From Candidatus Woesearchaeota archaeon (GTDB lineage Archaea; Nanobdellota; Nanobdellia; Woesearchaeales; WJIZ01): a stretch of DNA of 61,087 bases. Under the pieces are notes generated by a model. The model saw nothing but the letters and a program-made list of their open reading frames with translations. It did not search any database and was not told the origin of the DNA. The stretch is from assembly GCA_018221205.1 (NCBI GenBank), contig JAAOYF010000027.1, positions 1 to 61,087 of the forward strand. The letters are read 5' to 3'. A program made the position numbers and the translations under genes. Shown here one piece after another: positions 30,501 through 56,433 of this stretch (position 1 is the stretch's first letter; each line of letters begins with the position of its first letter).

Positions 30501-30594
30501 GTTTCGCAGAGGAGCTGAGAGATTTATAAGCTTTGCTAAACACAAGATTTATATACGCTCCGTGGCGAATTTAATTAAAAAAGAGGGGATATGA

Positions 30595-31656
30595 TTGAAC
30601 ATTGACGTGCCCTACACTAGTTTTCTTGATATAGATGGAAATCTCAAAGAAGGAGCTCCTCAGTTGAGCCATGATGACCTGAAGACGATCTATTGGCACA
30701 TGAATTTAGGAAGAATCTGCAATGCTAAGATCTTGAGCATGCAGAAGCAAGGAAGAATCGGGACCTATGCCTCTACACTTGGCCAGGAAGGCTGCCAAGC
30801 AGCTTTGGCCCATGCAATCAAAGATAATGATAACATATGGTTAGTGCCTTCTTTTAGAGAATCGGTCGCGACTATCGCTCGCGGCTATCCCATGGAGCAA
30901 CTGATGAGGTATTGGGGAGGCTTTGAGATCGGCAGCAATCAAACTCGAGAGTTTAAAGTCATGCCAGTTAACATTCCTATCGCTTCTCAATTGAATCATG
31001 CAGCAGGCATCGCTATCTCTATGAAATTCAAAGGAGAAAAGGGAGCTGCTATCGGATTTGTAGGAGATGGTGGTACGAGCGAAGGAGAATTCGCAGAAGC
31101 GATGAACTTTGTCGGAGAGTTCAAAGCGCCGGCAGTGTTTGTGTGCCAGAATAATCAATATGCTATCTCGGTTCCTCGAAAAAAACAGACTGCTGCTTCC
31201 ACCATCGCGCAGAAAGCAACTGCATTCGGTTTTGAAGGAGTGCAAGTTGATGGTAATGATGTCTTTGCTTGCTATAAGATCATCAAAGATGCAATCGAGA
31301 AAGCGATGAATGGAGGAGGGCCTACTTTTGTCGAAGCTATCACCTATCGTCTTGATAATCATACTACTGCAGATGATTGGCATAAGTATCGTACAGAAGA
31401 AGAAGTGAATGAATGGAAGAAGAAAGACCCTATTGAGAGATTGAAGAAGCATATGATGCAGATTGGTTGCTGGGACGACCAACATGAACAGCATATGTTA
31501 GAAGATGCGAAGAAAAAAGTAGAAGAAGCTGCAAAAGCATATGAAGGAACTCCCAAACCGAAAGTTGAAGAAATCTTTGATCATCTTTATGCAAAACTGC
31601 CTTATCATATCCAAGAGCAAAAGGATCACTTTGTGAAATTCTGGGGTGGACAATGA
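30595..31656 (+). CDS. 2-oxoacid dehydrogenase E1 component, alpha subunit (TTG start)
   Basis: 353-aa ORF with the TPP-binding motif GDGGTSEGEFAEAMNF...NNQYAIS. A GAGGGG ribosome-binding site precedes the TTG start. Confidence 0.85.
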   Translation: MNIDVPYTSFLDIDGNLKEGAPQLSHDDLKTIYWHMNLGRICNAKILSMQKQGRIGTYASTLGQEGCQAALAHAIKDNDNIWLVPSFRESVATIARGYPMEQLMRYWGGFEIGSNQTREFKVMPVNIPIASQLNHAAGIAISMKFKGEKGAAIGFVGDGGTSEGEFAEAMNFVGEFKAPAVFVCQNNQYAISVPRKKQTAASTIAQKATAFGFEGVQVDGNDVFACYKIIKDAIEKAMNGGGPTFVEAITYRLDNHTTADDWHKYRTEEEVNEWKKKDPIERLKKHMMQIGCWDDQHEQHMLEDAKKKVEEAAKAYEGTPKPKVEEIFDHLYAKLPYHIQEQKDHFVKFWGGQ

Positions 31657-32621
31657 CTGAACGCAACATGGTACAGGCATTGAACAATGCTTTTTTTATT
31701 GCTATGGAAAGAGATCCTACTGTCATCACCTATGGAGAAGATGTAGGGGTTGATGGCGGAGTCTTTCGCGTCACTGATGGTCTGCAGGCCAAATTTGGCG
31801 ATCAAAGAAGTTTTGACAGTCCATTAGCAGAGGCAGGCATCGTCGGATCTGCTATAGGTATGGCAGTCAATGGATTGAAGCCGGTTGTGGAGATGCAATT
31901 TAGTGGATTCATCTATCCAGCGTTCCAGCAGATTGTGAGCCATGCTGCCCGACTGAGAAATCGTACCCGAGGAGATATCACTATTCCTTTAGTCATCAGA
32001 AGCCCGTATGGAGGAGGAATCAATGCACTGGAACATCATTCAGAAAGCCTTGAAGCACTCTATGTCCATATTCCTGGATTGAAAGTGGTCATCCCTTCCA
32101 GTCCTTATGATGCTAAGGGATTATTGATTGCAGCTATAGAAGATCCTGATCCGGTGTTATTTCTGGAACCTAAGAGATTATATCGAGCAGTGAAGCAGGA
32201 AGTGCCTGATGATTACTATACTATTCCACTCGGCCAGGCCAAGGTCATGAAAGAGGGGAAAGATATCACTATCATCGCCTGGGGAGGGATGGTCCCTGTT
32301 GCAGAAGATGCTATTTCACAAGTGAAGGCAGAATGTGAGCTCATCGATCTGCGGACGATCGATCCGTGGGACAAGAAAACGATCATCGACAGCGTCAAGA
32401 AGACTGGAAAGTGTATCATCATCCATGAAGCGACCAAGACAGGTGGATTCGGCGCTGAGATCGCTGCGACGCTGCAGGAAGAATGCATCTTCAACCTCGA
32501 TGCTCCTGTCGCTCGAGTAACTGCTCCTGATGTCATCGTCCCTTATTTCAAGGCTGAACATTATTACCGGCCAAATGCAGACATGCTGGTCAAAAAAATC
32601 AATGAACTGCTTAACTTTTAG
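31653..32621 (+). CDS. 2-oxoacid dehydrogenase E1 component, beta subunit
   Basis: 322-aa ORF with transketolase-like pyrimidine-binding and C-terminal domains (GEDVG..GGVFRVT, FDSPLAEAGIVG). It overlaps E1 alpha. Confidence 0.85.
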   Translation: MTERNMVQALNNAFFIAMERDPTVITYGEDVGVDGGVFRVTDGLQAKFGDQRSFDSPLAEAGIVGSAIGMAVNGLKPVVEMQFSGFIYPAFQQIVSHAARLRNRTRGDITIPLVIRSPYGGGINALEHHSESLEALYVHIPGLKVVIPSSPYDAKGLLIAAIEDPDPVLFLEPKRLYRAVKQEVPDDYYTIPLGQAKVMKEGKDITIIAWGGMVPVAEDAISQVKAECELIDLRTIDPWDKKTIIDSVKKTGKCIIIHEATKTGGFGAEIAATLQEECIFNLDAPVARVTAPDVIVPYFKAEHYYRPNADMLVKKINELLNF

Positions 32622-34097
32622 ATGGCATTTGAATTCAAATTTCCGGACGTAGCAGAAGGTCTTGTTGAAGGTAAACTTGTTTCTTGGAAAGTCAAAGAAG
32701 GTGATAAGGTAAAGGCAGATGATACCATCTGCGAGATGGAGACAGACAAAAGCGTCTTAGACATCCCTATCCCTCAAGCCGGTACGGTCACGACACTGCA
32801 CCATAAAGCAGGAGATACAGTCAAAGTCGGAGATGTTTTGATCACCTTGGATGGTGATGGTGCTGGAAAAAAAGAGGAACCTGCAAAACCCGTCGAGAAA
32901 GCTGAAGTAAAGCAGGAAGTTCCACCAACGCAGCAAGTTCAACAAGAAATCCCACCTACCCAACCCCCTCCGCCGCCTGCGCAACCTGCTCAGGCACCTA
33001 AGGGAGAAATCAAAATCCTTCCTAAAGAAAAGAAATTGGCCAAAGAGATGGGTGTTGATTATTCTCATATTGCTGGAACAGGGCCGCAAGGAAGGATAAC
33101 CTCTGATGATATCAAGGCTGCTGCTGGAAAAGCTCCTGCGCCTGCTCGGCAAACACCTACTCAAATACCAGCACCGCAAAAGGAGATTAAAGAAGGTTTT
33201 CACCCTCATATCGATCAGGAGCATCCTTGTCATGCCTCTCCGGCGATGCGGAAGCATGCACGAGAACAAGGCATTCCTGTGGAACAGTTGACTGCTTCAG
33301 CTGCTCCATCCCACCCAAGTGCATCTCCACAGACCGTCCCACCCCCTCCTCCACCAGCAGTACATAAAGAAGCAATATCTATTAAGGATCGTGAAGGAGA
33401 CTCACGCGTCAAGATTGAAGGCATTAGACAGGCAATTTATAGGAAAATGTCTACATCATGGCAGCATATCCCTCATAGTTCCATCATGATCGAGGTTCCT
33501 ATCGATAAATTAGTTGAGGAACGAAATAAAGTCAAGGAAGAGATGAAGCAGAAGGGGATTAAACTCACTTATCTTGCCTATATCGCTAAAGTCACTGCTG
33601 TCGCACTTGAAAAATTCCCGAAAGTCAATTCTACTATTGATGAATCTACGAATGAACAAGTCTTACGTAGCCAAATCAATGTCGGCATAGCTGTCGATAC
33701 TGAAAATGGATTGATCGTTCCTAATATCAAGGAGACGAATAGGAAATCAATAACAGATATCGCTCAAGAGATCCAGGAATTGGCTGATAAAGCGCGTGCG
33801 AGGAAATTAAGCCCTAAAGAAATCACAGGTGGAACGTTTACGATTACAAATTTAGGAAGTTTCAATGCTCTCACTGGCCTTACTCTTATCAATCATCCAG
33901 AGGTTGCGATACTTGGAGTCGGAAGAATGTTTTCTAAAGTTGAGCTGCAGGATGGCAAGCCAGTTGAGAAGAAGATCCTTCCTCTGACAATCACCATAGA
34001 CCATAGAATTCTAGACGGTGCAGACAGCGGTAGATTTTTAAAGTACCTTGCAGACCATTTGAGCAATCCTTCATTGATGATATTGGATGTGATATAA
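32622..34097 (+). CDS. Dihydrolipoamide acyltransferase (E2)
   Basis: 491-aa ORF with a lipoyl domain (CEMETDKSV), P/Q/A-rich linkers, a subunit-binding domain (GTGPQGRITSDDI) and the catalytic motif TIDHRILDGA. Confidence 0.85.
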   Translation: MAFEFKFPDVAEGLVEGKLVSWKVKEGDKVKADDTICEMETDKSVLDIPIPQAGTVTTLHHKAGDTVKVGDVLITLDGDGAGKKEEPAKPVEKAEVKQEVPPTQQVQQEIPPTQPPPPPAQPAQAPKGEIKILPKEKKLAKEMGVDYSHIAGTGPQGRITSDDIKAAAGKAPAPARQTPTQIPAPQKEIKEGFHPHIDQEHPCHASPAMRKHAREQGIPVEQLTASAAPSHPSASPQTVPPPPPPAVHKEAISIKDREGDSRVKIEGIRQAIYRKMSTSWQHIPHSSIMIEVPIDKLVEERNKVKEEMKQKGIKLTYLAYIAKVTAVALEKFPKVNSTIDESTNEQVLRSQINVGIAVDTENGLIVPNIKETNRKSITDIAQEIQELADKARARKLSPKEITGGTFTITNLGSFNALTGLTLINHPEVAILGVGRMFSKVELQDGKPVEKKILPLTITIDHRILDGADSGRFLKYLADHLSNPSLMILDVI

Positions 34098-35515
34098 TGG
34101 TTATCGGAGAAGCAATAGGTTCGACTGATGTAGCTATCATAGGTGGTGGACCAGGCGGCTATACTGCTGCTATCAAATGTGCCCAAGAAGGAAAGAAAGT
34201 TACTGTTGTTGATAGGGAGAGTGTCGGTGGCATATGCTTGCATCATGGCTGTATCCCTACGAAAGCGTTGATCCATGCTGCTGATATGGTGCAGGAAAGC
34301 AAGAAGGCAGCTGAGTATGGTGTTTCTTTTTCTGGAATTTCAGTTGATTTCAAGAAGACACAAGAATGGAAACGAAATATCATCAAGAAATTAGATAATG
34401 GTGTCCGAGGATTGTTCAAGCATTATGGCATCACGCTGCTGAAAGCAGAGGCTTTTTTTGAGGAATCAAATAAATTATCATTACATCCTCTTGATGAGAA
34501 TGAACATTTGGAGATCAATGCTCTTGAATTCAAGAAATGCATCATCGCTACTGGTTCTAGAGAGAGAATGATCCCTGGCATTGAAGTAGATGGAGAGTCT
34601 ATCCTTACTTCAACACATGCAATTGAATTAGAAACACTTCCTGAATCTGTTCTCGTCATCGGTGGAGGCTATATCGGCATTGAATTGAGCCAGATGATGG
34701 CTAAATTAGGAGTGAAAGTCACGATCGTCGAGGCTTTGCCTCGTATCTTAAATCTCTTGGATGAGGAATTCAGCTCTATAGTGCAAAAGAATGTCGAAGC
34801 ATTCGGCGGAACAGTGTTTGCTAGTGCGAAAGTAGAAAAGGTTGAGAAAAAAGATGGAAAAGTAAGCACGACTTTCAATAAAGACGGCAAATCACAGACT
34901 GTTGTCACTGATAAAGTCATTGTTGCTATAGGCAGAGTACCTAATGCTGAGCAATTACATCTTGATACTACTAAAGTTCAGCTTGATGAACATGGTTTCA
35001 TCAAGATAGATAAGAAGATGCAGACAACTGATCCCCGCATCTTTGCTATCGGTGATGTAGCTGGTGGAGCGATGCTGGCACATAAGGCAGCGTTTGAAGC
35101 AAAGATAGCTGCAGAAGTCATTGCTGGCAAGAGCAGTGCGTTTGATAATCTTGTTCCTTTTGCTATCTTCTCAGATCCTGAGATTGCAGGAGTAGGGTTG
35201 AATGAAACTCAGGCCAAAGAGCAGGGGTTAAGCTATAAGGTGAAAAAATTCAACTCATCTACTTCGGGAAAAAGCCAGATCATGGGGGATAAAGGATCGT
35301 TCTTCAAAGTGATTTATGAGGAGAATGGGACTATTCATGGTCTGCATATCTGTGGAGCGAGAGCTTCGGATATGATTGGAGAGGCTGTTTTAGCTATGGA
35401 GATGGGAGCTACTATAGAGGATCTTTCTTTGATCATCCATCCGCATCCTACACTTGTTGAAGGATATGGAGAATTAGCTGATCTGGCACTTGGAAAGCCG
35501 ACGAATTCTCTGTGA
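34097..35515 (+). CDS. lpdA: Dihydrolipoamide dehydrogenase (E3)
   Basis: 472-aa ORF with GGGPGGYTAAI, the redox disulfide GGICLHHGCIPTK and the C-terminal HPHPTL motif. Confidence 0.9.
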   Translation: MVIGEAIGSTDVAIIGGGPGGYTAAIKCAQEGKKVTVVDRESVGGICLHHGCIPTKALIHAADMVQESKKAAEYGVSFSGISVDFKKTQEWKRNIIKKLDNGVRGLFKHYGITLLKAEAFFEESNKLSLHPLDENEHLEINALEFKKCIIATGSRERMIPGIEVDGESILTSTHAIELETLPESVLVIGGGYIGIELSQMMAKLGVKVTIVEALPRILNLLDEEFSSIVQKNVEAFGGTVFASAKVEKVEKKDGKVSTTFNKDGKSQTVVTDKVIVAIGRVPNAEQLHLDTTKVQLDEHGFIKIDKKMQTTDPRIFAIGDVAGGAMLAHKAAFEAKIAAEVIAGKSSAFDNLVPFAIFSDPEIAGVGLNETQAKEQGLSYKVKKFNSSTSGKSQIMGDKGSFFKVIYEENGTIHGLHICGARASDMIGEAVLAMEMGATIEDLSLIIHPHPTLVEGYGELADLALGKPTNSL

Positions 35516-35652
35516 TTTTAGACTTATTCAAAAAACCCGTGGATTAGCATTTCCGCTCTCTCTAAGCTTCTTGAATAATCTGCCCATTGTATAGAAGTAA
35601 TTTATACGCTTTTCAAACAGGTGCATTTTTTGGGATAAAAAAGAGGTGAAAG

Positions 35653-35766
35653 TTATCCCGGACTAATGTCCAATTTCTTCTCTAATTCAGCAATAGCCAG
35701 TGTTGTCTTGATAATGGTGTCGGGGTTGAGGGACATGGTCTGGATGCCGCATTGGACAACGACAAG
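35653..35766 (-). pseudogene. Diverged duplicate of the last ~36 codons of ppsA (orphan 3' fragment)
   Basis: Hand translation gives LVVVQCGIQTMSLNPDTIIKTTLAIAELEKKLDISPG then a stop. The ppsA C-terminus reads EFVVQCGIGSMSLNPDTVIKTTLSVAKLEQKLGISPE then a stop. An in-frame TAG lies immediately upstream. Many synonymous differences occur at the nucleotide level. Confidence 0.8.
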
Positions 35767-36716
35767 CTAGAAACGAGATCATTCAGTTTTGCCTGCCGAT
35801 CCTTGTGAGCTCCAAAACCAATGAGATTGGCATATGTTCTGAGGTTTTCCTTGCCGCCGATATAGAGGCTTTCCATACGATATCTTGTGGTTCTTTTATG
35901 ATGCGTGTATGATATATTCAAGAAATTTAGCAGTTTCTTTACGAAATTGATTTCATCAGGATTCTTCATCTCCAGACGGACATATCTTGTTTTATTGTTG
36001 TATACTGTACCTTCTCCAGCCATAAGACCACGGAGATACGCGGCTGCACGTTGCGGATCATTCAAAGCAGCAGTTTTTACATAGTCTCTGAGAGCAAGGA
36101 AAAGATCGATGACAACAGCATTGTCGACACAAACTCTATATTTGGGGATTTTATTGTATTGTTGATATGAGATTCTTGTGTCATGAAACCGTTCATAGCT
36201 TCCCATGTAACCGATTGGCAAAATAACGTTTATGTAATAAGGAAGATCCGGAATGAATTTCCTGAGCCATCTAATATAAAACCTTATTACATCGATATTT
36301 GAATTAGTGAATCGGAGCTTTCTGGCTTTTTTAGTACCAGAATCTCCTGTGTCACCTTCAGCAATATAAAGACCATAACCTTCGACGAATAATTCTGTTA
36401 GTTTGATTTGTTTCGGTAAAGAAATCGGTTTGTTATGGCTTCCCCATGAATAGTAGCCGGTGATTTCGTCATAAACCTTATGTTTGTCTACACCAAGAAC
36501 CGAAGCAATTTTCAATAGCCTGATGAGATTATGGCCATAGTTCTTCTTGAAAGGCCAATTAAAGGTTTGGCTGTCGATTTTGATATATTGTTGATTGAAT
36601 TCTTCAATAGAGCCGGATTTAGAATTGATTTTAAATTTTAGTTTTTCAATAAAGCTACTGTTGACTGATACGAAAACCTTCTCGAGATTTGAAAGCAGGG
36701 CAGCTGTCTTATACAT
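35682..36716 (-). CDS. LAGLIDADG homing endonuclease (double-motif, free-standing)
   Basis: 344-aa ORF with two LAGLIDADG-type motifs (LFVEGYGLYIAEGDTG and AAYLRGLMAGEGTVY). Its last ~28 codons read through the ppsA 3' fragment in a different frame. Confidence 0.75.
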   Translation of the reverse strand: MYKTAALLSNLEKVFVSVNSSFIEKLKFKINSKSGSIEEFNQQYIKIDSQTFNWPFKKNYGHNLIRLLKIASVLGVDKHKVYDEITGYYSWGSHNKPISLPKQIKLTELFVEGYGLYIAEGDTGDSGTKKARKLRFTNSNIDVIRFYIRWLRKFIPDLPYYINVILPIGYMGSYERFHDTRISYQQYNKIPKYRVCVDNAVVIDLFLALRDYVKTAALNDPQRAAAYLRGLMAGEGTVYNNKTRYVRLEMKNPDEINFVKKLLNFLNISYTHHKRTTRYRMESLYIGGKENLRTYANLIGFGAHKDRQAKLNDLVSSLSLSNAASRPCPSTPTPLSRQHWLLLN

Positions 36717-36853
36717 ATGAAATCACCAAGCCCCCTAAGTAAAGCTCGCTTAAATGATTTCAGCAACTTGCGAAATCATAATTTACGAGCTGAACACTAG
36801 TTTGGGAGATTTCATATAAGATAAACTTTGCCCTCTAAAATCCGGAAGGTTTC

Positions 36854-41869: not shown

Positions 41870-43075
41870 ATGAGAGTATTGATGTTTGGGTGGGAATTTC
41901 CGCCAATGAGTTCTGGAGGTTTGGGTACGGCTTGCTATGGACTCACCAAAGGATTGAGCCAGCACGGTATTGGAGTTACCTTTGTCATGCCTTATGTCTC
42001 TGAAGGTGTAGATGCTGAATTTGTCAAGCTGTTGCCTGCCAATACAGCCCAGAAGATTAAGATGGTTGGTGTGGATAGCCCTCTTCATGCTTATATCACC
42101 TCAAGCGAATATCAGGAATTTCTGCTGACCTATAAGAAAACGGGTAAGCAGAACAAGCTCTATGGGCATAATCTGTTTGAGGAAGTGTATAGATTTTCTA
42201 TGAAAGCTGCGCTCATAGCTCAGCATGAGCAGTTTGATGTCATTCACTGCCATGATTGGATGACCTATGAGGCAGGCATCAGAGCACGGGAAGCCTCTGG
42301 AAAGCCTATGGTGATCCATGTCCATGCCACTGATTTTGACCGTACTGGTGGAAATGTCAATCAATTGGTGTATGACATCGAAAAAAGAGGGATGCATGCT
42401 GCTGATATGATCATCGCAGTTTCGCAATTCACCAAGAACAAGATTGTTGAGCATTATGGCATCAATCCTGATAAAGTCACGGTTGTACACAATGCGGTGA
42501 CGCAGGAGGAGAAACCTCGTTTCCATATCAATAAACATGATAAGATTGTGCTGTTTTTGGGAAGGATAACCCTGCAGAAAGGTCCGGACTACTTCATCGA
42601 AGCAGCGCGAAAGTGCCTTGAATTCGACCCAAACATCAGATTCGTCATTGCTGGAACAGGGGATATGGAAGGCCAGATTATACAAAGGGCAGCAGAATAC
42701 GGCATCGGCGACAAAGTCCTTTTTGCCGGATTTGTCAAGGATGAAGATCTTGATAGGATGTACCAGCTGGCAGATGTGTATGTGATGCCTTCTGTCTCAG
42801 AACCTTTTGGCATCACTCCTCTGGAAGCGATGAAAAATGGCACACCCTGCATCATCTCGAAACAGAGTGGAGTCTCGGAAGTCATCACCCATTGCCTTAA
42901 AGTTGATTTTTGGGACATCAATCAGCTTGTCGATAAGATTCTCAGTGTATTGAAACATGAGGAATTACATCATGCTCTCAAGGAACACGGTGCTCTAGAG
43001 ATCAAGAATTTCACCTGGCGGGAGCCAGCAGGGAAATGCGTTGACGTTTATAAAAAAGCGATAGCAGGGGGCTAA
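41870..43075 (+). CDS. GT4/GT5 glycosyltransferase, archaeal glycogen-synthase-like
   Basis: 401-aa ORF. The N-terminal MRVLMFGWEFPPMSSGGLGTACYGL and the E-x7-E motif EPFGITPLEAM fit GT-B retaining transferases. The glycogen gene context supports the assignment. Confidence 0.65.
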   Translation: MRVLMFGWEFPPMSSGGLGTACYGLTKGLSQHGIGVTFVMPYVSEGVDAEFVKLLPANTAQKIKMVGVDSPLHAYITSSEYQEFLLTYKKTGKQNKLYGHNLFEEVYRFSMKAALIAQHEQFDVIHCHDWMTYEAGIRAREASGKPMVIHVHATDFDRTGGNVNQLVYDIEKRGMHAADMIIAVSQFTKNKIVEHYGINPDKVTVVHNAVTQEEKPRFHINKHDKIVLFLGRITLQKGPDYFIEAARKCLEFDPNIRFVIAGTGDMEGQIIQRAAEYGIGDKVLFAGFVKDEDLDRMYQLADVYVMPSVSEPFGITPLEAMKNGTPCIISKQSGVSEVITHCLKVDFWDINQLVDKILSVLKHEELHHALKEHGALEIKNFTWREPAGKCVDVYKKAIAGG

Positions 43076-43078
43076 GAA

Positions 43079-43328
43079 ATGGTAAGTGTATGCTTGAGGT
43101 CTTTCAAAGACCTCGGAGAAGAGCACAAGGAGGAACTCCTCAAAAATCGGAGTTCCCCAAGGCAAAGAGGGACAACAACATGGTAAGTGTATGCTTTGAG
43201 ATTTTTGCAAAAAATCTCGTAAAAAGCGTGGGTTTCGCTTTTGTAGGCAAAGCCTACAAACCTTTGAGCATAGCTCAAAGTTCGCTCAAGCCCACGATTA
43301 GGGGGATAACATGGTAAGTGTATGCTTT
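43079..43328. repeat. Elements B1/B2: triplicated start-codon segment ATGGTAAGTGTATGCTT separated by 84-nt and 114-nt hairpin inserts
   Basis: Copies lie at 43079..43095, 43180..43196 and 43311..43327; the third is the GH57 start. B1 contains the hairpin GAGGTCTTT-C-AAAGACCTC. B2 contains GAGATTTTT-GCA-AAAAATCTC, GTAGGC-AAA-GCCTAC and CTTTGAGC-ATA-GCTCAAAG, all nested inside CGTGGG...CCCACG. Confidence 0.9.
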
Positions 43329-44501
43329 TATTTTCAAGTGCATCAGCCGTACAGAATCAGAAATTATTCAGTCTTTGATATCGGCAATAACAATCAGTAT
43401 TGGTTTAATGATAAAAATAAACAGATCATGGAGAAGGTCGCGAAGAAATGCTATATTCCTACCAATAAAGTCTTCCTGAATCATCTGCGGAATAATCCAG
43501 AGTTCAAGATCAGCTATTCTTTTTCAGGGGTTGTCCTTGACCAATTTGAGGAGTATGCTCCTGATGTCCTTCGGAGCTTCCAAGATCTTGTCGATACTGG
43601 CCAGGTCGAGGTGCTTGATGAAACTTATTACCACAGCCTGGCTTATCTCTATTCAAAAGATGAGTTCAAAGCACAGGTAAAACTTCATAATAAGAAGGTG
43701 AAGGACCTCTTCGGCTACAGCCCGTCTGTCTTCAGAAACACAGAACTGGTCTATAACAATGAACTTGCTAAATTTGTTGAAGATATGGGCTATAAAGGAA
43801 TCCTGGCAGAAGGTGCAGACCACATCCTCGGATGGAGAAGCCCTAATTTCCTCTATCGACCTGTGACGTGCAATAATATCAAGCTGCTGCTGAAGAATTA
43901 TAAGCTCTCAGATGACATCGCATTCAGATTCTCGAACAAAGGATGGAATGAGCATCCATTGACTGCACCAAAATTTGCAAAATGGGTGAACCAGACAAAC
44001 GGGAACGGGAACGTCGTCAACCTGTTCATGGATTACGAGACTTTCGGCGAGCACCAATGGGAAGACACCGGCATATTCAAGTTTCTAGAAGCGATGCCCC
44101 ATGAACTGCTCAAGCACCCAGACAATAAGTTCATCACGCCGAGCGAAGCTGTCAAGAGCTTCGAGCCTGTAAGTGACCTAGACATCCATAACATCATCTC
44201 ATGGGCAGACATCGAACGAGATCTGAGCGCATGGCTCGGCAACAGCATGCAGCAATCAGCAGCAACAAAGATCTACCAAATCGAGAAAAGAGTAAAGGAA
44301 CTGAACGATCCGAAGCTATTGGAAGACTGGCGAAAATTGCAGACGAGCGACCATTTCTATTATATGTGCACGAAGTGGTTTGCAGACGGTGATGTGCATC
44401 GGTATTTCAATCCCTATGAAAGCCCTTATGACGGCTTCATCGCATTCATGAACATCCTGAATGATATGCACAAAAGAATAGCACCACCAATTCCAGCATA
44501 A
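43311..44501 (+). CDS. Glycoside hydrolase family 57 protein
   Basis: 396-aa ORF. The N-terminal FYFQVHQPYRIR and MDYETFGEHQWE segments are typical of GH57 alpha-glucan-active enzymes. Confidence 0.75.
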   Translation: MVSVCFYFQVHQPYRIRNYSVFDIGNNNQYWFNDKNKQIMEKVAKKCYIPTNKVFLNHLRNNPEFKISYSFSGVVLDQFEEYAPDVLRSFQDLVDTGQVEVLDETYYHSLAYLYSKDEFKAQVKLHNKKVKDLFGYSPSVFRNTELVYNNELAKFVEDMGYKGILAEGADHILGWRSPNFLYRPVTCNNIKLLLKNYKLSDDIAFRFSNKGWNEHPLTAPKFAKWVNQTNGNGNVVNLFMDYETFGEHQWEDTGIFKFLEAMPHELLKHPDNKFITPSEAVKSFEPVSDLDIHNIISWADIERDLSAWLGNSMQQSAATKIYQIEKRVKELNDPKLLEDWRKLQTSDHFYYMCTKWFADGDVHRYFNPYESPYDGFIAFMNILNDMHKRIAPPIPA

Positions 44502-46014: not shown

Positions 46015-46440
46015 TTATTCTAGGCGTTCCCTCAATCCTTTACAGGCAGAAAAAACCGTCTGCTTCAATTCCTTGGGAAGAAGCCTATAGCGCTGCATGA
46101 TCTCATGATAGTTGTCCTTAGCAGGCTTCTTCTCATTGTTCCTCAGATGCTCAAAACATTCTTTGATCAGGACATTTATACGGTCAAAATCAGATCCTTT
46201 AGAGAGGTCATCTATCTCATTCTTGATATCCTTCAGGAGATGTTTTGCACGCTTGATGTCATGCTCTTCCTGGGTGAGTGATGCAGTCTTTATCTTTGAA
46301 GGTATATCCAATACCATCAGCTCTGCTATGGCAGTATCTTTCCCTTCTTTTCTCAGCACGGACACAGACTGCTGCAATTCCTGAAATTTATCCTTAAGTT
46401 CGTCGATCTTCTCTTCTATCTCCTCTTTTTTTATCCTCAT
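46015..46440 (-). CDS. Helical/coiled-coil hypothetical protein
   Basis: 141-aa ORF. Its start overlaps the stop of the 1287-aa ORF. Confidence 0.45.
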   Translation of the reverse strand: MRIKKEEIEEKIDELKDKFQELQQSVSVLRKEGKDTAIAELMVLDIPSKIKTASLTQEEHDIKRAKHLLKDIKNEIDDLSKGSDFDRINVLIKECFEHLRNNEKKPAKDNYHEIMQRYRLLPKELKQTVFSACKGLRERLE

Positions 46441-49400
46441 TTCTTAACCTCCTTCTTCTCCCCTTTCGGAGGGTTTTTCGTAAGCTCAATAGCCCCTTCT
46501 AATTTTTTCACTACCTTATCCTTCTTCTCAACCTGGTCTTTTGGCAATGCAATATTCTTGACCTCCATCATCAGATCATTGATGGTTAGCCAGTCTTTAT
46601 AGGGGAGCAAGTTCTCAATCTGCTTGCCCAACTGAGTTATGCTCTCGAGATTCGCCTCGATCTGTTCCTTACTTAGCTTCGTTTCCTCTTTCTTCTCTTC
46701 TTTTCTTGATTCGACCTCTTTCTTCTTCACTTCTTTTTCCTTATCAGCTGCCTTTTCGTGCTCTTTTCGTGCTGCTTCCAATTCTTTTTCCATAGCCTCG
46801 ACATCGACGAGCTTTCTCTGCAGTTTCTGAGGCTTCTTACCTATCTTGTTCCAGAGTTTCTCAACCCTCGGCGTCAATCCATCCAGGTAGATCTGGACCA
46901 TGTTGAAATTGCCTGATTTGATCTTGTCCTGGGCAAGCTTCAGCTCTAATTTCAGGTCGAACACATCCTGGCTTTCCTTCTCGAGCTGCTCGAACTGGAA
47001 TGCGAGATCGTCGACAATATCATTGAATTTATTGTATTTCTCAAGCTCCTCATCACTCAATCTGACGACAGAATGGAGGATAGGACGGAATGTCACGTAG
47101 TAAGGCCTTCCACGATTCCATGCAGAGCTCTGCACCATGCCGCTGCCAACAGGCGCTTTGATCAATGCCTGGATGAACTCTTCACCATAGTTGGTCTTGA
47201 TCCTGTTCAAATCGCCCTCATCTCGAGTCTTCATCTGGACGTTGGTGTTGATGTTGGCTTTGATCTGGCCGACGAAATCCTGCAATACCTGTGAGATCAG
47301 CAAAATACCGATACCCCACTTCCTGAACTCTCGGCACCCACGTTCAATCTGGATAAAGCCCTGTCCAGAGCCGCCAAATTTCGGCAAGATCCTATGGATC
47401 TCATCGTAGACGAGCATATATCTCAATCCCCGATACTCCTGCAGATTAGAGTGGAAGATCTCTCTGATGGTATTCGCGACAAAAATATCATAGTCCTTTG
47501 GATCTAATGTGGAGGTGGTGAAGACCTGTATCTCTCCAGGACGCCAATTCTTGTAGATGGCGACAATCTCTCTACTATCCTTGATTGCACGAATATTACC
47601 TGGGAAGGCTCTCGCGTCTTTAGGTTTCATACCCATCGCAGGATAGAAGCTGAGCATCTTCTTATCAGTGCATTTTCTCAGCATGCCTGACCATTGGGCA
47701 GTCGGATCGAATACGACGATAGCTGCACCCTTTATCAATACCTCTTCTATTATCACCTGTGCTGCAATAGATTTTCCTCCTCCTGTCGATCCTGCGACGA
47801 TGGAATGGACGGTTAAGATGTCCATATCAAAATATGCGTTCTTGGTCGTCTCTGCTATCTTGCCAACAAACAAGCTGCGGGGCCCTTCTTTCGGCAACTC
47901 TTTATAATCGACTTTCGCATGGAACCTCTTCCGTTTCTCCATCTCCCTCTTTATGATGAGGTAGGTGATGAATCCCAGCAGGAGAAGGGCCACGATGAGT
48001 GCAAGGACCCATACAGGCAGCCATCCAAAGATCCGATATTGATGATAAGGATAGACGACACTAAACAAGGTATCTGTCGAAGAGGAGATGCCTAGATATT
48101 CTGCTTCAACTCCGAGGAGATAATCTCCAGTCTCGAAGTCTTTCGGTATCTTATACGAGCGTATGAGGGAAGCGAAGGTCTCGATGTTCAGACCATGCTC
48201 TCCTATCGGGGTCTTATTGGTCTTGTTGAGATCAGAGATGAAGAAACTTAGGTTGACATTGTATTTCCTTCCGATCAGCAGGTTGATCAGATCCAATTCA
48301 TATTTGAAATCATAGCCGATGAATGCATTTTTCTTCAACGGCCGGAGATCCATCAATAATGTCCTTACCGGAATGTCGATGTCTTCTGTTATGATGAGAT
48401 AGACAGGTATGTTGTAATCATAATCTCCCCTTATGCGGATATTGCCTAAGTATTTTCCTTCGTCTTGGTTCCCTAGCAGGCGCACGTTCACTTCTTTAGA
48501 AGAATTTGCAGGAATGAGCAGCTCTGTGTCGCTCAATTGAATGGAAGGAGCGACATTTCCTTCTACACCGAGCCTTAATCTTATCGGTACTTTCCTGAAA
48601 TTGAAGATGGTGAACTGCTCGTCCACGTAGTTTCCTCTCTGTATCTTCTTGATGATCTCGTTGATGGAGATGAATACTTCTAGAGGAGAGGGTTTTTGCA
48701 CATCTATGGGGAAGGCGGATTCGTCTGTCCTTGTCCTTGTCCTTGTCTGAGTCTCTTCCTCTGGCTTGGGCTGAACTTGCACCTGCTCAGGTATCTCTCC
48801 AAGCGGAATAGTGATGTTCACTGTACCGCCCTCTACTAATTCAGTTATCCCAGTCAGGTTCCCAATGTAAGGGAAATATCCATCCTTAATGCCGATAATC
48901 AAATAGTAGGCTGAAGCAGGAAGGTTCAGCGTAAAGCCACCATTAGTGTCTGAGTAGGTAAGGTAGCCTCCGATAGCCACTGTAGCGTTTGATATCCTTG
49001 TCAGAGTATCCTCATCGAAGACATATCCATTCACTGTCCCATTCAGATCTGCTTCGATGGGAATCGGGATTAATGATAGGTTCAGCTCTTTTTCTTCATA
49101 GATATCGATGCTGATATCTTTTGAGTAGGGGAAATATCCTGTCTTCACTGCGACAGCGGTCCTGTTGCCGCTCTGCATAGGGAAACTGAATCTTCCACTT
49201 GCATTCGTGATACCGACGCCGCCACCAGCTGAGACTGTCGCATTCGGGATGGCGCAGGCTGCGATGGAGAAGTTTGCGATGCAGGCGCTTGTGTTCTGGA
49301 AGACATATCCTCTTAATATTGCATTGAAATCAAACTTCCCGAGGAAATCAGGGACCATGGAGATATTGTATTGGATTATCTCTCCGACTTCGGCCTCTAC

Positions 49401-50300
49401 CAGACCGTAGAAGTCCAAGAATCCAGGATGACTTGCTTTCAAGATATGTCGGTCTACATCTACAAGTATCAAGTAGTAGCCAGATGCATTTGTGTTGGTC
49501 GTAAGACCAGAAATATTGATTATTGTATTGTTCAATGGAGAGCCATCTCTTATATCAGTCACATACCCGTCGATGAAACTCTTCTCCTGGATGGAGCAGT
49601 TGCTCAAAGGATCAGATATAGGATCAGGGAAGAAATAATAGGTGATATTGTCAGAAGATTCTGGAATGGGCAGCATCATTTCATAATTATAGTAGGAATT
49701 GTCAAAGCCTTGCTTAAATTCTTCTGCTTGGACTGCAAAGAAGATGTTTCCGGCAGAATCCTGCAATGCACCCATCAACCAGCTCACTGCTTCTGGGAAG
49801 AGATCAATCGCAGGAGCAGTGATATTCAATCCTCCTAGGATTACATTGATGGTCTCTGTGAAACTCATATTCGCGGAATACACTGCTTGTGAACTGACTT
49901 CCATGAATGCGTCTATCGCAGAGAGATTTGCAGCAGATGCACCTGAGGAAAAATCCAATTGCGATTGATTCAGGGTGCTGGCATATATATCTAATCCGGT
50001 TGTACCATGACAATTGAAGAAGAGATCGTACCTATTTAGGTCGCCGGCCGCCGAAGTATAGGGCCAATAATCATTATTATTCGACGGACTGAGGATAGCG
50101 ATACCATAATAGCCAGTCCACCAGTTCATCTCTACTGGCCCGACTATCTGCACTTCATAGATATAGCCGGCTGTTCCGTTGACTGCCCAGCCGAAGTAGC
50201 CGACATAATCTTTGACATAAGTGAGAGTGATGAGAGCAAGGACTAGAGAGATGATTATTATGAACAGATACAAATACTTGTATTGTCTCTTATGTATCAC
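46437..50300 (-). CDS. Giant single-pass membrane protein: extracellular W-x-G-Y-Y-G-like and CarboxypepD_reg-like repeats, TM helix, cytoplasmic HerA/FtsK-like (DUF87) P-loop ATPase, coiled-coil tail
   Basis: 1287-aa ORF with a GTG start overlapping the RHH-1 stop (GTGA) and an N-terminal signal anchor. MNWWTGYYG...GLDIYAST resembles the secreted family. Three G-Y-V-x-D...N-A-S-G-x-F-like repeats follow. TM helix IFGWLPVWVLALIVALLLLGFITYLII. Walker A HSIVAGSTGGGKS, VVFDPT, Walker B MLVYDEIH, and LLISQV. The tail is K/E-rich. Confidence 0.75.
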   Translation of the reverse strand: MIHKRQYKYLYLFIIIISLVLALITLTYVKDYVGYFGWAVNGTAGYIYEVQIVGPVEMNWWTGYYGIAILSPSNNNDYWPYTSAAGDLNRYDLFFNCHGTTGLDIYASTLNQSQLDFSSGASAANLSAIDAFMEVSSQAVYSANMSFTETINVILGGLNITAPAIDLFPEAVSWLMGALQDSAGNIFFAVQAEEFKQGFDNSYYNYEMMLPIPESSDNITYYFFPDPISDPLSNCSIQEKSFIDGYVTDIRDGSPLNNTIINISGLTTNTNASGYYLILVDVDRHILKASHPGFLDFYGLVEAEVGEIIQYNISMVPDFLGKFDFNAILRGYVFQNTSACIANFSIAACAIPNATVSAGGGVGITNASGRFSFPMQSGNRTAVAVKTGYFPYSKDISIDIYEEKELNLSLIPIPIEADLNGTVNGYVFDEDTLTRISNATVAIGGYLTYSDTNGGFTLNLPASAYYLIIGIKDGYFPYIGNLTGITELVEGGTVNITIPLGEIPEQVQVQPKPEEETQTRTRTRTDESAFPIDVQKPSPLEVFISINEIIKKIQRGNYVDEQFTIFNFRKVPIRLRLGVEGNVAPSIQLSDTELLIPANSSKEVNVRLLGNQDEGKYLGNIRIRGDYDYNIPVYLIITEDIDIPVRTLLMDLRPLKKNAFIGYDFKYELDLINLLIGRKYNVNLSFFISDLNKTNKTPIGEHGLNIETFASLIRSYKIPKDFETGDYLLGVEAEYLGISSSTDTLFSVVYPYHQYRIFGWLPVWVLALIVALLLLGFITYLIIKREMEKRKRFHAKVDYKELPKEGPRSLFVGKIAETTKNAYFDMDILTVHSIVAGSTGGGKSIAAQVIIEEVLIKGAAIVVFDPTAQWSGMLRKCTDKKMLSFYPAMGMKPKDARAFPGNIRAIKDSREIVAIYKNWRPGEIQVFTTSTLDPKDYDIFVANTIREIFHSNLQEYRGLRYMLVYDEIHRILPKFGGSGQGFIQIERGCREFRKWGIGILLISQVLQDFVGQIKANINTNVQMKTRDEGDLNRIKTNYGEEFIQALIKAPVGSGMVQSSAWNRGRPYYVTFRPILHSVVRLSDEELEKYNKFNDIVDDLAFQFEQLEKESQDVFDLKLELKLAQDKIKSGNFNMVQIYLDGLTPRVEKLWNKIGKKPQKLQRKLVDVEAMEKELEAARKEHEKAADKEKEVKKKEVESRKEEKKEETKLSKEQIEANLESITQLGKQIENLLPYKDWLTINDLMMEVKNIALPKDQVEKKDKVVKKLEGAIELTKNPPKGEKKEVKK

Positions 50301-50431
50301 TCTGCGTCCATCCTCCTTTTGATTAGGTACTCAAAACCGTGAGATCTGTTTGCGAATGTTTTATCATCAATCTTCTTATCTATCCAATCAACTAAATCTT
50401 TGTCTATTGTTATGGTGATGCGCTCTTTCAT
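50297..50431 (-). CDS. Ribbon-helix-helix (CopG/Arc-like) micro-protein RHH-1
   Basis: Not in the track. Hand translation gives MKERITITIDKDLVDWIDKKIDDKTFANRSHGFEYLIKRRMDAE. The beta-strand ITITID plus the RSH..EYL helix pattern fits an RHH fold. Confidence 0.6.
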   Translation of the reverse strand: MKERITITIDKDLVDWIDKKIDDKTFANRSHGFEYLIKRRMDAE

Positions 50432-50562
50432 TCTTGGTCTATCTTCCTTTTCACTAAATATTCAAAAGCATGAGATCTGTTCGCGAATGTCTTGTCAGTT
50501 ACTTTCTTATCTAGCCATCTGAGAAGTTCTTTGTCTATTGTTATGGTGATGCGCTCTTTCAA
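50428..50562 (-). CDS. Ribbon-helix-helix micro-protein RHH-2 (TTG start)
   Basis: Not in the track. Hand translation gives (M)KERITITIDKELLRWLDKKVTDKTFANRSHAFEYLVKRKIDQE, a tandem paralog of RHH-1. There is no in-frame ATG upstream. It has an ATGA overlap with RHH-1. Confidence 0.5.
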   Translation of the reverse strand: MKERITITIDKELLRWLDKKVTDKTFANRSHAFEYLVKRKIDQE

Positions 50563-53831: not shown

Positions 53832-54100
53832 TTCTCCACCTCTATCATCTCTTTTATCCTTTTGAGCTCTTGCAGCAGAAGTTCCTCTTTTGAGAGCTTG
53901 GATTTTTCCTTTACAACTTCTTTGATATCTTCTCTCAGTTTTTTCACTTGGTAGGTTGTAGGGTCTTTCCATTCCAGCCAACGCTTTCTTACAATGCTTC
54001 TCACTGTTTCTGATACATCAAGAAAATGATCTTTCTGGACAATCTCTTTGAGGTTTTTAGCTAATGAAGAAGGAACCCTTATAGAGACTATTGCATTCAT
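53828..54100 (-). CDS. Ribbon-helix-helix protein with coiled-coil extension
   Basis: 90-aa ORF. MNAIVSIRVPSSLAKNLKEIV...VSETVRSIVRKRW fits an RHH N-domain. Confidence 0.55.
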   Translation of the reverse strand: MNAIVSIRVPSSLAKNLKEIVQKDHFLDVSETVRSIVRKRWLEWKDPTTYQVKKLREDIKEVVKEKSKLSKEELLLQELKRIKEMIEVEK

Positions 54101-54240
54101 TTCGACCCCATGTAGTCACGGATGAAATCTCGAATAGCTTCTGATCTTGACCCATAGATCTCCCTCTTCACCAAAGAATCAAGCCATTTTATGATATCAT
54201 CAGGCAGGCGCACGTTTAGGATGTTTATTTTTTGCGGCAT
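54097..54240 (-). CDS. Ribbon-helix-helix CopG-family micro-protein
   Basis: Not in the track. Hand translation gives MPQKINILNVRLPDDIIKWLDSLVKREIYGSRSEAIRDFIRDYMGSK, a classic CopG pattern (SRSEAIR). It has an ATGA overlap with the next gene. Confidence 0.65.
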   Translation of the reverse strand: MPQKINILNVRLPDDIIKWLDSLVKREIYGSRSEAIRDFIRDYMGSK

Positions 54241-54573
54241 TTGTTTTCAGTATACAGATGTATGATATTTGTATTTTAATATAATAATATGTGTAGTATT
54301 TAAAAGTTTCTATCCTTTTGTGTATTTTCTTTGTATGTTGTATGTATTTTATTTATTAGTTATATGTATTTTCTATTTTTCTGGTTAAATTAAGGATGGG
54401 CGAAATAGTCTGTTTGTATTATATACGTGTGATGTATGTATTATGGAATAGTGGTTTTTTGTTGGAGAAAGACCATCTAGACTAGGCACTCAAACATTTA
54501 ATCTTGTTACTAATATACAAAAGCAGAATATTTATATAGTAGTTTCTATACTATTGTAGCAAGGGGGTAGTAA
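54241..54573. promoter_or_regulatory. AT-rich 333-nt divergent intergenic region packed with TGTAT / TGTATTTT repeats
   Basis: TGTATTTT occurs at 54270, 54321, 54343 (within TGTATGTATTTT at 54339) and 54365. Further TGTAT copies lie at 54259, 54332, 54414 and 54433-54437. The region sits between the RHH operon (minus) and the 128-aa ORF (plus). Confidence 0.6.
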
Positions 54574-54960
54574 ATGGTAGTACTATTTGACATATTTAAT
54601 TTACCAGATGATATCTTTGAAGTAGTGTTTGCTACGAAACAGCAGAAGATCATCGCAAAAGTCCTTATTGTGGCGATGAAAAATAACCATAATTCTTTTA
54701 CCAAGACTGAGATGAGTTTCTTGGCTACCCAGCTTCATGAAGGCAAGTATGTTACAGAGATTGATGAGCCAGAGTATAAAGGCAAGAAAGTCAAATTAAG
54801 CTATAATAAAAGGCAGTTCTATGATAGAATCCTGACTCCGATGAAGAGTATGGGATTGATCTATTATGATCTGTACAAGAAAACATATTCACTTTCTGAT
54901 CGCTTTAACAAGGAGCTGCAGAAGATCGGCATGATGTGGCTTCATGAATTGAAAAAATAG
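54574..54960 (+). CDS. Hypothetical protein, possible winged-helix DNA binding
   Basis: 128-aa ORF preceded by GGGGGT. No firm motif; the wHTH assignment is a guess from helical pattern. Confidence 0.35.
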   Translation: MVVLFDIFNLPDDIFEVVFATKQQKIIAKVLIVAMKNNHNSFTKTEMSFLATQLHEGKYVTEIDEPEYKGKKVKLSYNKRQFYDRILTPMKSMGLIYYDLYKKTYSLSDRFNKELQKIGMMWLHELKK

Positions 54961-54962: not shown

Positions 54963-55083
54963 TTATTCTAATTGCACGTAGAAGTAATACTCGAGCATTT
55001 TCAAATCCTCGGCAAAGAGTACCACATCTTCATTACATTCGGAGTGGCACAGACAAATCACTTATTCTAACTGCACGTAGAAG
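54963..55083. repeat. Element D: 22-nt direct repeat (21/22) duplicating a gene 3' end, flanking a 77-nt insert
   Basis: ttattctaaTtgcacgtagaag (54963..54984) and ttattctaaCtgcacgtagaag (55062..55083). The second copy is the reverse complement of ...FYVQLE-stop. The insert shares the 16-nt CAAATCCTCGGCAAAG with element C. Confidence 0.85.
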
Positions 55084-56278: not shown

Positions 56279-56348
56279 AGTGTGTTATTTGAATACTAAT
56301 TAAGAGAATTGGTATATAAAATTAACTGTTAGAGAATACTAGGTAAGA

Positions 56349-56433
56349 GAGATTTTTGCCCGCTCACTCTGTTCGCTTAAAAACCTCGCAAAAAGCACTC
56401 AAGTGGGATATTGACTTCGTCAAGTCCCACGAA
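56349..56433. repeat. Element E: hairpin-module sequence related to element B2, no clear flanking direct repeat
   Basis: It shares GAGATTTTTGC (11/11) and CTCG[CT]AAAAAGC with B2. Terminal hairpin GTGGGA-TATTGACTTCGTCAAG-TCCCAC (56403..56430). Confidence 0.6.

Follow-up and report, generated by a model that had tools for sequence, protein, structure and literature searches.

The start of a GH57 glycoside hydrolase gene occurs three times in contig JAAOYF010000027.1, a 61,087-bp metagenomic contig from a Woesearchaeota-like DPANN archaeon that was analysed over its whole length (hereafter the window), and the copies are separated by two different hairpin-rich inserts, B1 and B2. The explanation that we consider probable rather than established is that B1 and B2 are mobile hairpin elements inserted with long target duplication, and that the leftover start codons have been kept as relay upstream open reading frames (uORFs). 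Both inserts belong to a family of elements flanked by duplicated target sequence, for which related genomes hold the corresponding empty sites; the hairpins carry compensatory changes, and the uORFs are open and end at the next start. Archaeal marker genes are present on the contig, and the best homologues of its GH57 protein (at most 78% identity) are labelled Woesearchaeota or Nanoarchaeota.

Three copies of the GH57 gene start

A glycosyltransferase (GT) gene lies 5′ of GH57, and its TAA stop codon (43073-43075) is 3 nt ahead of the first repeat copy. As an earlier note on this DNA had proposed, the start segment ATGGTAAGTGTATGCTT is found at three positions of the window (43079, 43180, and 43311), two different hairpin-rich inserts lie between them (B1, 43096-43179, 84 nt; B2, 43197-43310, 114 nt), and copy 3 alone runs on as MVSVCFYFQVHQPYR into the GH57 open reading frame (ORF) at 43311-44501. 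The 21 nt that it described as common to copies 2 and 3 (AACATGGTAAGTGTATGCTTT) are indeed identical, and the hairpins that it named are present in a region that folds far better than shuffled sequence (z = -4.6). The features of the locus are the following.

41870-43075, plus strand: GT4-type glycosyltransferase gene, 5′ of GH57 (ORF; orthologues have Glycos_transf_1/Glyco_transf_4 Pfam matches).
43065-43095, plus strand: repeat copy 1, the native junction, made up of the GT end, a G-rich Shine-Dalgarno (SD)-like stretch, and then ATGGTAAGTGTATGCTT (exact core 43079-43095).
43096-43164, plus strand: B1 core, with 5′ hairpin GAGGTCTTT-C-AAAGACCTC, GGAGAAGAGCACAAG, 3′ hairpin GAGGAACTCC...GGAGTTCCCC, and AAGGCA.
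43165-43197, plus strand: repeat copy 2, with a diverged pre-ATG part AAGAGGGACAACAAC, then ATGGTAAGTGTATGCTTT.
43198-43297, plus strand: B2 core, with hairpin GAGATTTTT-GC-AAAAAATCTC, GTAAAAAG, an outer CGTGGG...CCCACG around a two-hairpin module, and the end ...ACGA.
43298-43328, plus strand: repeat copy 3, with TTAGGGGGATAAC (a remnant of a GT-end/SD junction), then ATGGTAAGTGTATGCTTT, the real GH57 start.
43311-44501, plus strand: GH57 glycoside hydrolase gene, 396 aa (ORF; Pfam PF03065).

Parts of both inserts are found again in other elements of the window (A, C, D, and E) and at loci of related genomes, which carry L numbers below. A homologous B1 core occupies the same position in L160-L162, and B1 shares its 3′-terminal AAGGCA with the end of element C; both ends of B2, 5′ and 3′, recur in element E, L168, and L163.

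A family of hairpin elements

B1 and B2 are two of six copies in the 61-kb window of a family of hairpin-rich, non-coding elements of ~60-125 nt (inserts of 59-123 nt), each of which has an 11-35-nt direct repeat of its own target on both sides. The remaining members are listed here.

22942-23050, minus strand: element A, a 59-nt insert between the copies of a 25-nt repeat (22942-22966 and 23026-23050).
54963-55091, plus strand: element D, a 69-nt insert between the copies of a 30-nt repeat (54963-54992 and 55062-55091; 26/30 identical).
56338-56444, plus strand: element E, a B2-type core (56349-56432) with a degenerate 11-12-nt repeat (ACTAGGTAAGA / ACTAGAATAAGA).
59562-59754, plus strand: element C, at the start of a DRG-family GTPase gene, a 123-nt insert (59597-59719) between the copies of a 35-nt exact repeat (59562-59596 and 59720-59754).

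The repeat of element A consists of the last 11 nt of a tRNA-Pro gene and the 14-nt spacer ahead of the L37ae start. For element D, the repeat corresponds to the 3′ end of a minus-strand gene (55062-55820) and starts 2 nt past the stop of gene 54574-54960, and its two copies differ mostly at third codon positions. Element C folds better than its shuffles (z = -4.3). Element E is intergenic and antisense to both neighbour genes; a location at ORF boundaries, which the earlier note had asked about as a constant property, is thus not a rule, and the L189 and L216 elements described below are likewise intergenic. The sharing of modules among the window elements is borne out by further occurrences, with GAGATTTTTGC found again at 56349, TTCGCTCAAGCCC at 23011, GAGCACAAGRRGGAAC at 43121 and 59677 (chance expectation 0.1 matches), and CAAATCCTCGGCAAAG at 55002 and 59611.

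Two types can be distinguished. B2-type elements (window B2, window E, L168, and L163) begin with [G/C]AGATTTTT-loop-AAAAATCT[C/G]-G[T/C]AAAAAG, followed by a variable hairpin and a CGA 3′ end. B1-type elements (window B1, C, D in part, and the L160 GH57 insert) begin with GAGnnnTTT-loop-AAAnnnCTC-GG..., followed by a long 3′ hairpin GGGAAC...GTTCCC and a 6-nt tail, and their 3′ ends read GTTCCC[CT]A[AG][AG]GC. Compensatory changes in five of its eight pairs preserve the shape of the 5′ hairpin. Similarly, a double compensatory change separates the nested two-hairpin module of the window from that of L160 (TGTAGGC/GCCTACA vs TGTAAAC/GTTTACA). Hybrid and nested modules also occur: the element at the DRG gene of L160 is a B2/B1 hybrid, and the same two-hairpin module lies within different host hairpins in B2 and L160. 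Members of the B2 type are found at four different targets with four different repeats, and those of the B1 type with at least three repeats. No Rfam family matched any element, either at the gathering threshold or at E <= 1, and 16-nt module patterns gave only single chance matches without extended similarity in IMG/VR, where longer patterns gave none. A metagenome scan with a 24-nt hairpin pattern returned one locus, L163. Within the window, the spacer between a LAGLIDADG gene and the pyruvate, phosphate dikinase (PPDK) gene (36717-36853) contains a nested hairpin, AGCTCG..AATGATTTC..GAAATCAT..CGAGCT, whose inner stem matches one hairpin of element C, and this may be a seventh, repeat-less copy.

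Filled and empty sites in related genomes

The sequences compared were filled loci on syntenic contigs from other samples, 80 GTDB loci (L164-L243, ~1.2 Mb) from more distant Woesearchaeota and the candidate phyla radiation (CPR), and ~120 kb from the nearest empty-site relatives (L244-L253). A look-up of the exact GH57 sequence of the window returned no record that could have supplied a sister strain. At the GH57 gene of L159, ATGATAGGTGTTTGCTTT and GTGGTAGGTGTTTGCTTT enclose a 62-nt insert with an 18-nt repeat, and in L160, L161, and L162, three assemblies with identical architecture, ATGGTAAGTGTATACTT and TTGGTAAGTGTATGTTT enclose a B1-type insert with extra nested hairpins. The GH57 gene of L168 has a 28-nt repeat and a B2-type insert, and the position in the gene differs. 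Similarly, the DRG gene of L160 has an insert with a 14-nt repeat at a position that differs from that of window element C. The empty GH57 junction, with the target in single copy, is found in L244, L245, L247, L248, and in almost all of the 80 GTDB loci, and the empty DRG start, also single-copy, in L159, L250, L251, and L252/L253. The element family was not detected in the ~120 kb of L244-L253, and among L164-L243 it was detected in L168 only; it is patchy and clade-restricted. The earlier note had named empty sites in sister genomes as a check on its reading and the absence of the modules elsewhere as a ground for rejecting it; the targets at GH57 and DRG are single-copy in relatives, and the modules recur both in the window and in related genomes.

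These comparisons also bear on whether the triplication is an assembly artefact, that is, a collapsed or expanded repeat in a metagenomic contig seen without its reads. This is scarcely credible: the two inserts differ in sequence, so that no simple tandem expansion could have produced them, the same architecture is present in independent assemblies (L159 and L168) and identically in L160, L161, and L162, and the frames are conserved. The recurrent architecture in independent assemblies and the clean empty sites together favour insertion, with target duplications that are long and variable, over an artefact.

Other repeats were encountered in the same genomes. Unrelated hairpin elements with exact 13-nt and 17-nt direct repeats lie intergenically in other Woesearchaeota (L189 9810-9950 and L216 15244-15410, respectively), the one in L216 with short inverted termini AGAAAGTAA..TTACTTTCT, and, given these two, long duplications may be widespread in the phylum. 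The search for larger long-repeat elements found one, in L160 (11591-12199): at the 3′ end of a small ribbon-helix-helix (RHH) gene, a 54-nt exact direct repeat flanks a 501-nt insert carrying an ORF of 84 aa. The differences in the 19 nt beyond this repeat are nearly all synonymous (MDLES* vs MDVES*), and one repeat copy may stem from an RHH paralogue or a foreign allele and not be a new duplication. In CPR bacteria and planctomycetes, what seemed to be repeats 280-430 nt upstream of GH57 proved false, since the GT motif VMPSV resembles the GH57 start MPSV.

Extent of the target duplication

The exact repeats measure 11, 13, 14, 17, 18, 21, 25, 28, 30, and 35 nt and were checked against single-copy empty sites. 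At the empty GH57 sites the GT stop directly adjoins the GH57 ATG, and the G-rich SD-like stretch is made up of the final codons of GT. The 14-22 nt ahead of the downstream ATGs resemble this GT-end/GH57-start junction, for example TTAGGGGGATAAC in window copy 3 and TAATTAGGGTGGAATT in L159, and the junction of the same genome ranked 14, 3, 2, 22, and 4 among 87 junctions (Fisher combination p ~0.003). In addition, the element cores have recurrent ends short of the ATG (...CGA in the B2 type and ...AAGGCA or ...AGAGCG in the B1 type), which indicates that the intervening bases belong to the target and not to the element. The duplicated unit at GH57 probably spans the gene junction, with ~31-44 nt and a diverged 5′ part, and the duplications overall comprise 11-35 nt of exact repeat and probably 30-45 nt when the diverged part is included; we infer these full extents from the junction comparison. 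The repeat is thus probably not confined to the start-codon segment, to which the earlier note had assigned it, and appears from the ranking of the 87 junctions to reach into the GT end, with probably ~14-20 nt of diverged sequence 5′ of the ATG.

An explanation of the repeated segment as the 5′ end of a leaderless transcript with a TATA-like box at -32 to -25 was considered and set aside as unsupported, because the box is part of a conserved GT coding motif and lies at -50 in the empty-site L248, and because the DRG gene and element D do not fit.

Open frames through the inserts

Each upstream ATG at the inserts of GH57 and DRG in the window opens a uORF.

43079-43186, plus strand: uORF 1, 35 codons (MVSVCLRSFKDLGEEHKEELLKNRSSPRQRGTTTW), which crosses B1 and ends with the TAA of the second ATGGTAA.
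43180-43317, plus strand: uORF 2, 45 codons, which crosses B2 and ends with the TAA of the third ATGGTAA.
59562-59726, plus strand: element C uORF, 54 codons, ending at the TAA inside the next ATGGTAA.

The ORF list gives the frame of uORF 2 from an earlier ATG at 43090. The lengths of 35 and 45 codons and the embedded TAA ends are as the earlier note had given them, and its 52 codons for element C have to be corrected to 54; the start-to-start spacings of 101, 131, and 158 nt are all 2 mod 3, as it had observed. Together with the relatives, seven cases are available (window B1, B2, and C, L159, L160 GH57, L160 DRG, and L168). The frame of the upstream ATG is stop-free in every one of them, the end of the stop lies -3 to +6 nt from the downstream start, and the spacing is 2 mod 3 in six; the other two frames of the inserts mostly contain stops. 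The mononucleotide-shuffle probabilities have a product of 4e-9 over the seven cases, and a conservative frame test, the chance that the ATG frame is among the observed stop-free frames, gives ~0.002.

At the empty sites the GH57 and DRG starts lie 0-12 nt past the stop of the upstream gene. Termination-reinitiation coupling in archaea is nearly abolished at a stop-start distance of ~20 nt, as measured with reporters in Haloferax and Escherichia coli (PMC10666635, PMC6728339). Because coupling needs a short stop-start distance, an untranslated insert of 84-176 nt would break it, and an open bridging frame would restore it. From their sequence, the uORFs look like selected relays that keep this coupling, and selection accounts better for the 2-mod-3 rule and the open frames than a property of the insertion mechanism would. 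The termination-reinitiation geometry suggested in the earlier note is strengthened, at the level of sequence, by the open frames in 7/7 cases, the spacing in 6/7, and the short native stop-start distances. The downstream start is GTG or TTG in L159, L160, and L168, and the upstream copy keeps ATG, a relaxation of the start codon in three lineages that fits reinitiation. The likeness to known coupling lies in the uORF stops at -3 to +6 nt from the next start and in the native distances of 0-12 nt. Known cases, however, join two real genes, whereas here short frames made by insertion seem only to bridge mobile-element sequence, twice in series at GH57, and the stop/start overlap takes the form A-TGG-TAA, with the stop 4 nt downstream of the start, instead of the known ATGA or TAATG.

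Programmed ribosomal bypassing, of which T4 gene 60 and the yeast mitochondrial byp elements are examples, would instead have the ribosome take off in the upstream copy, skip the insert, and land in the next copy on a matching codon. In repeats, pairs of matched take-off and landing codons are trivially present, and a stable hairpin stands directly 3′ of each upstream copy. There is, however, no stop after the putative take-off site, the inserts are open in frame as far as the next start, a feature that bypassing has no need of, and every downstream copy has its own start codon and SD-like stretch, so that we give this account very little credence and prefer the relay uORFs.

Links to tRNA genes and the question of excision

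Two tRNA genes connect the lineage with intervening sequences. The window tRNA-Pro(UGG) (23040-23143, minus strand) was missed by ARAGORN and Rfam in its intact form and is called by ARAGORN only after in silico removal of a 29-nt T-loop insert. Similarly, the tRNA-Ala(CGC) of L163 is recognised by ARAGORN only after its 94-nt T-loop insert has been removed in silico, and this insert contains GAGTTCTTTGCGAAAGAACTCGGAGAAAGG, a B1-like 5′ module. The L163 gene lies in a dense tRNA cluster (570-1145) of a 183-kb metagenomic contig. A second tRNA of that cluster probably has an insert in the D region, and its 3′ end, AATCTTCGCAACCCCAT, occurs three times with two hairpin-rich inserts between, the same layout as window B1/B2; a B2-type element lies antisense between the two tRNAs. 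Judged from these sequences, the element family also seems to supply tRNA intervening sequences. Transposition of archaeal non-canonical tRNA introns was reportedly proposed by Fujishima et al. in 2010.

An obvious alternative is that B1 and B2 are bulge-helix-bulge (BHB) introns or other intervening sequences at the RNA level, so that an insert and one repeat copy are spliced out and the upstream ATG is the true start. The non-canonical tRNA inserts of the lineage (window tRNA-Pro and L163 tRNA-Ala), the B1-like module within the latter, and the retention of ATG in the upstream copy of relatives with GTG or TTG downstream would all agree with this, and a weak GU-rich BHB-like pairing is possible between the GH57 repeat copies. 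The canonical BHB motif consists of 3-nt bulges separated by a 4-bp helix. A scan for this motif at boundaries allowing precise excision, in which relaxed motifs were only partly explored, found none in C, L160-DRG, A, and D and only weak GU/AU pairings at GH57, which arise because AAGUGUAUGCUU is self-complementary with wobble pairs. Excised inserts would moreover escape selection on their frame, whereas each of the seven is open and terminates at the next start. We regard splicing as very unlikely; the selection on reading frames argues that the inserts stay in the mRNA.

Another possibility is that the repeats are attachment (att) sites, left by integrative elements that carry a copy of a gene end, as at tRNA genes or with phage 21/e14 in icd, and that the inserts are remnants of such elements or miniature integrase-mobilised cassettes. 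Like att sites, the repeats do span gene ends and leave the gene restored (PMC3293823), element A lies at a tRNA 3′ end, and the L163 tRNA 3′ end is present in three copies. In addition, the element D copies differ mostly at third codon positions, the changes in the flanks of the L160 54-nt repeat are nearly all synonymous, as though one copy derived from a different allele, some downstream pre-ATG parts are closer to the junctions of other lineages than to their own, and a related metagenome-assembled genome (MAG) has a tyrosine integrase. On the other side, one element type occurs with various repeats, at more than one target, and at more than one position of the same gene, and so is not site-specific; no integrase is encoded in the window; and the 59-123-nt inserts share modules across sites, unlike the remnants of unrelated integrations. 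The att explanation is accordingly improbable in our judgement compared with mobile hairpin elements that duplicate their targets. The MAG in question (GCA_014729995.1, L250) encodes a tyrosine integrase and an IS200-like Y1 transposase (Y1_Tnp) at 595-1245 and 16328-16879; the Y1 transposase is flanked by its own perfect hairpins (TTACGACCACCT.. and TTACAAAGTAGT..), which are unrelated to the elements, and the loci of that MAG lack elements; neither gene is linked to the family.

Comparison with known systems

Miniature inverted-repeat transposable elements, or MITEs, have as their defining features terminal inverted repeats and 2-10-bp duplications, and a Woesearchaea genome is reported to contain ~105 MITEs per Mb (PMC11602168). 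The six elements in 61 kb represent a density of the same order, and like MITEs they are small, non-coding, and multi-copy, with filled and empty sites among relatives. However, no terminal inverted repeats reaching the >=10-15 bp of MITEs were found in either type, since the 5′ ends ([G/C]AGATTTTT... and GAGGTCTTT...) and the 3′ ends (...CCCACGA and ...GTTCCCYARRGC) are not reverse complements; the folds consist of internal hairpins without end-to-end pairing, and the exact repeats have 11-35 nt instead of a fixed 2-10 bp. The earlier judgement that the elements differ from ordinary MITEs thus holds for both the termini and the long, variable duplications. The likeness extends to repetitive extragenic palindromic (REP) sequences and bacterial interspersed mosaic elements (BIMEs), IS200-IS605-derived elements, Correia elements, and Rickettsia palindromic elements (RPE), in that all are small, non-coding, multi-copy, hairpin-forming, and patchy, with mosaic modules as in BIMEs. 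REP and IS200-type elements are not known to make a target duplication and are inserted beside a fixed short motif. Here, long repeats flank every copy except the intergenic one of L163, and in place of a fixed 4-5-nt motif different bases stand 5′ of the element start (GCTT, CTTT, AAGA, CAAG, GAAA, ACTC, and TTAA). The window encodes neither a Y1 (HUH) transposase nor a RAYT, the enzymes associated with such elements.

Long and variable target duplications are known from IS1630 (19-26 bp), IS1549/IS1634 (8-514 bp), and restriction-modification (RM) units, for which there is no mechanistic model, and the IS1634 family is frequent in Euryarchaeota (PMC2266710, PMC2853133 for the duplications; PMC2266710 for the distribution). 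The elements resemble these in target repeats that are long, vary from copy to copy, and often overlap gene ends. They differ in that the known systems are insertion sequences (IS) of 1.5-2 kb with a transposase and terminal inverted repeats, or multi-kb units, whereas the elements are non-coding hairpin modules of 60-125 nt; no IS1634- or IS30-family transposase is encoded in the window. With att duplications (PMC3293823) they share the repeat of a tRNA or protein gene end, the intact gene, and the tandem arrays (L163 and window B1/B2), and they differ in the tiny inserts without integrase and in the many repeats used by one element type. Archaeal non-canonical tRNA introns and their proposed transposition (PMC4090602) are a further system for comparison. 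The B1-like module in the L163 tRNA-Ala T-loop and the T-loop tRNA inserts of the lineage provide the likeness to these introns; the copies in mRNA, in contrast, lack a usable BHB motif, show frame selection, and are probably unspliced. The closest precedents are IS1630, IS1549/IS1634, and RM units for the duplication and ordinary stop/start coupling for the expression solution. A limited literature search found no report of insertion-created uORFs acting as coupling bridges, nor of miniature elements with long duplications.

Proposed explanation and its difficulties

In the proposed explanation, B1 and B2 are mobile elements of one family, small, non-coding, and rich in hairpins, from a Woesearchaeota-like DPANN clade, and two successive insertions would have taken place after GH57 codon 6, at the junction where the GT stop adjoins the GH57 ATG, probably in the order B1 then B2. 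Each insertion would have copied the GT end, the SD-like stretch, the ATG, and the first ~6 codons, and because the junction was copied each time, an intact GH57 start would have been rebuilt downstream and neither gene destroyed. Ribosomes leaving GT would restart at the first ATG, cross the hairpins, and terminate at the TAA in the next ATGGTAA; a restart there and the same step at the second copy would bring them to GH57, so that a chain of termination-reinitiation steps would replace the native direct coupling.

Several observations weigh against this explanation. The post-ATG part of the repeats is 0-12% diverged between copies and the pre-ATG part 35-50%, with indels, an asymmetry that a simple history of duplication followed by drift does not predict. 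The freed pre-ATG part may have undergone rapid adaptive remodelling, the uORF start may be under constraint, or one copy may have been imported from another allele; for the last of these, window copy 3 is a better match to the native junction of L197 than to that of the window itself. The evidence for duplication 5′ of the ATG is statistical (p ~0.003) and may in part be due to convergence on SD-like sequence. The two 5′ target genes start with ATGGTAAG and are the only such genes of the window, and GGTARG is also present in the repeats of elements E and A, which hints at a target or homology rule. GGTAAG or GGTAGG lies inside the repeats of B1, B2, C, E, and A (43079, 59562, 56341, and 23050) and of L159, L160, and L168; the motif is common in the window, and GGTARG is a suggestive candidate for a target or homology motif. 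The seven uORF cases are partly non-independent, as window B1 and L160 may share ancestry, and that the uORFs are translated and needed is suggested by their conservation as sequence. Finally, the elements lack terminal inverted repeats, the 61-kb window encodes no transposase, integrase, or reverse transcriptase (a search for mobility genes found only a free-standing LAGLIDADG protein), and no autonomous partner was found.

Some of these points would suit template switching during replication, or microhomology-mediated repair, which would copy modules to new sites with duplication of the flanks, shuffling, and nesting and would need no dedicated transposase. The mosaic and nested composition (B2 vs the L160 module and the L160-DRG hybrid), the variable duplication length, and the lack of a mobility gene in the window agree with such a process, for which ATGGTAAG at both 5′ targets could be the homology anchor. 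The discrete and recurrent 5′ and 3′ ends of each element type, however, look like end recognition, and the conserved, covarying 5′ hairpin suggests a role in binding or recognition; we therefore hold template switching to be unlikely, without dismissing it, and retain the insertion of mobile hairpin elements. A broader and more speculative proposal, made tentatively, is that the elements represent an undescribed archaeal mobile class of tiny hairpin units with 10-45-nt duplications, which would colonise gene ends in DPANN genomes, where intergenic space is nearly absent, and be tamed by the host through relay uORFs, and whose modules in tRNA T-loops would be a living source of non-canonical introns.

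Other features of the window

Two tandem 44-aa RHH (CopG-like) genes lie at 50297-50558 on the minus strand, with a 131-nt period and 78% identity. Their overlapping stops and starts (ATGA, then GTGA) lead into a 1287-aa HerA/DUF87-domain gene (46437-50300), and an RHH homologue is present in L160. The region 30253-36716 holds a pyruvate/2-oxoacid dehydrogenase operon (E1 alpha, E1 beta, E2, and E3) together with the 344-aa LAGLIDADG-domain protein (35682-36716, minus strand). This block sits between a UPF0020 methyltransferase gene and PPDK, which adjoin each other in L159 and L160 and have one 485-aa gene between them in L248, and because of the adjacency in syntenic relatives the block looks like an insertion. 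AT-rich (~32% GC) intergenic regions of 0.3-0.6 kb with degenerate short direct repeats occur in the window (53982-54573, with TGTATTTT..TGTATGTATT) and in L159 (17600-17910, with five AATACTTACAAATTAGGT), and could be promoter, origin, or protein-binding arrays.

Significance

The arrangement at the GH57 locus is real, reproducible across genomes, and unusual. It would combine a non-autonomous mobile element that has a long target duplication with a selected translational relay. For annotation, it means that gene callers label the uORFs as hypothetical proteins (for example, the 63-aa ORF of L160-L162) and miss interrupted tRNAs. The small elements offer an experimentally tractable handle on insertion with long variable duplication, which has no mechanistic model, and the GH57 locus provides an independent comparative test of the published rule that stop and start must lie within a few nucleotides. 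The modules in a tRNA intervening sequence make the link between mobile hairpins and the origin of non-canonical archaeal tRNA introns testable. The locus would also show how a mobile element can sit harmlessly in the first codons of a gene in a genome where genes touch or overlap, as the duplication would rebuild the gene end and the uORF would restore the hand-over of ribosomes from one gene to the next.

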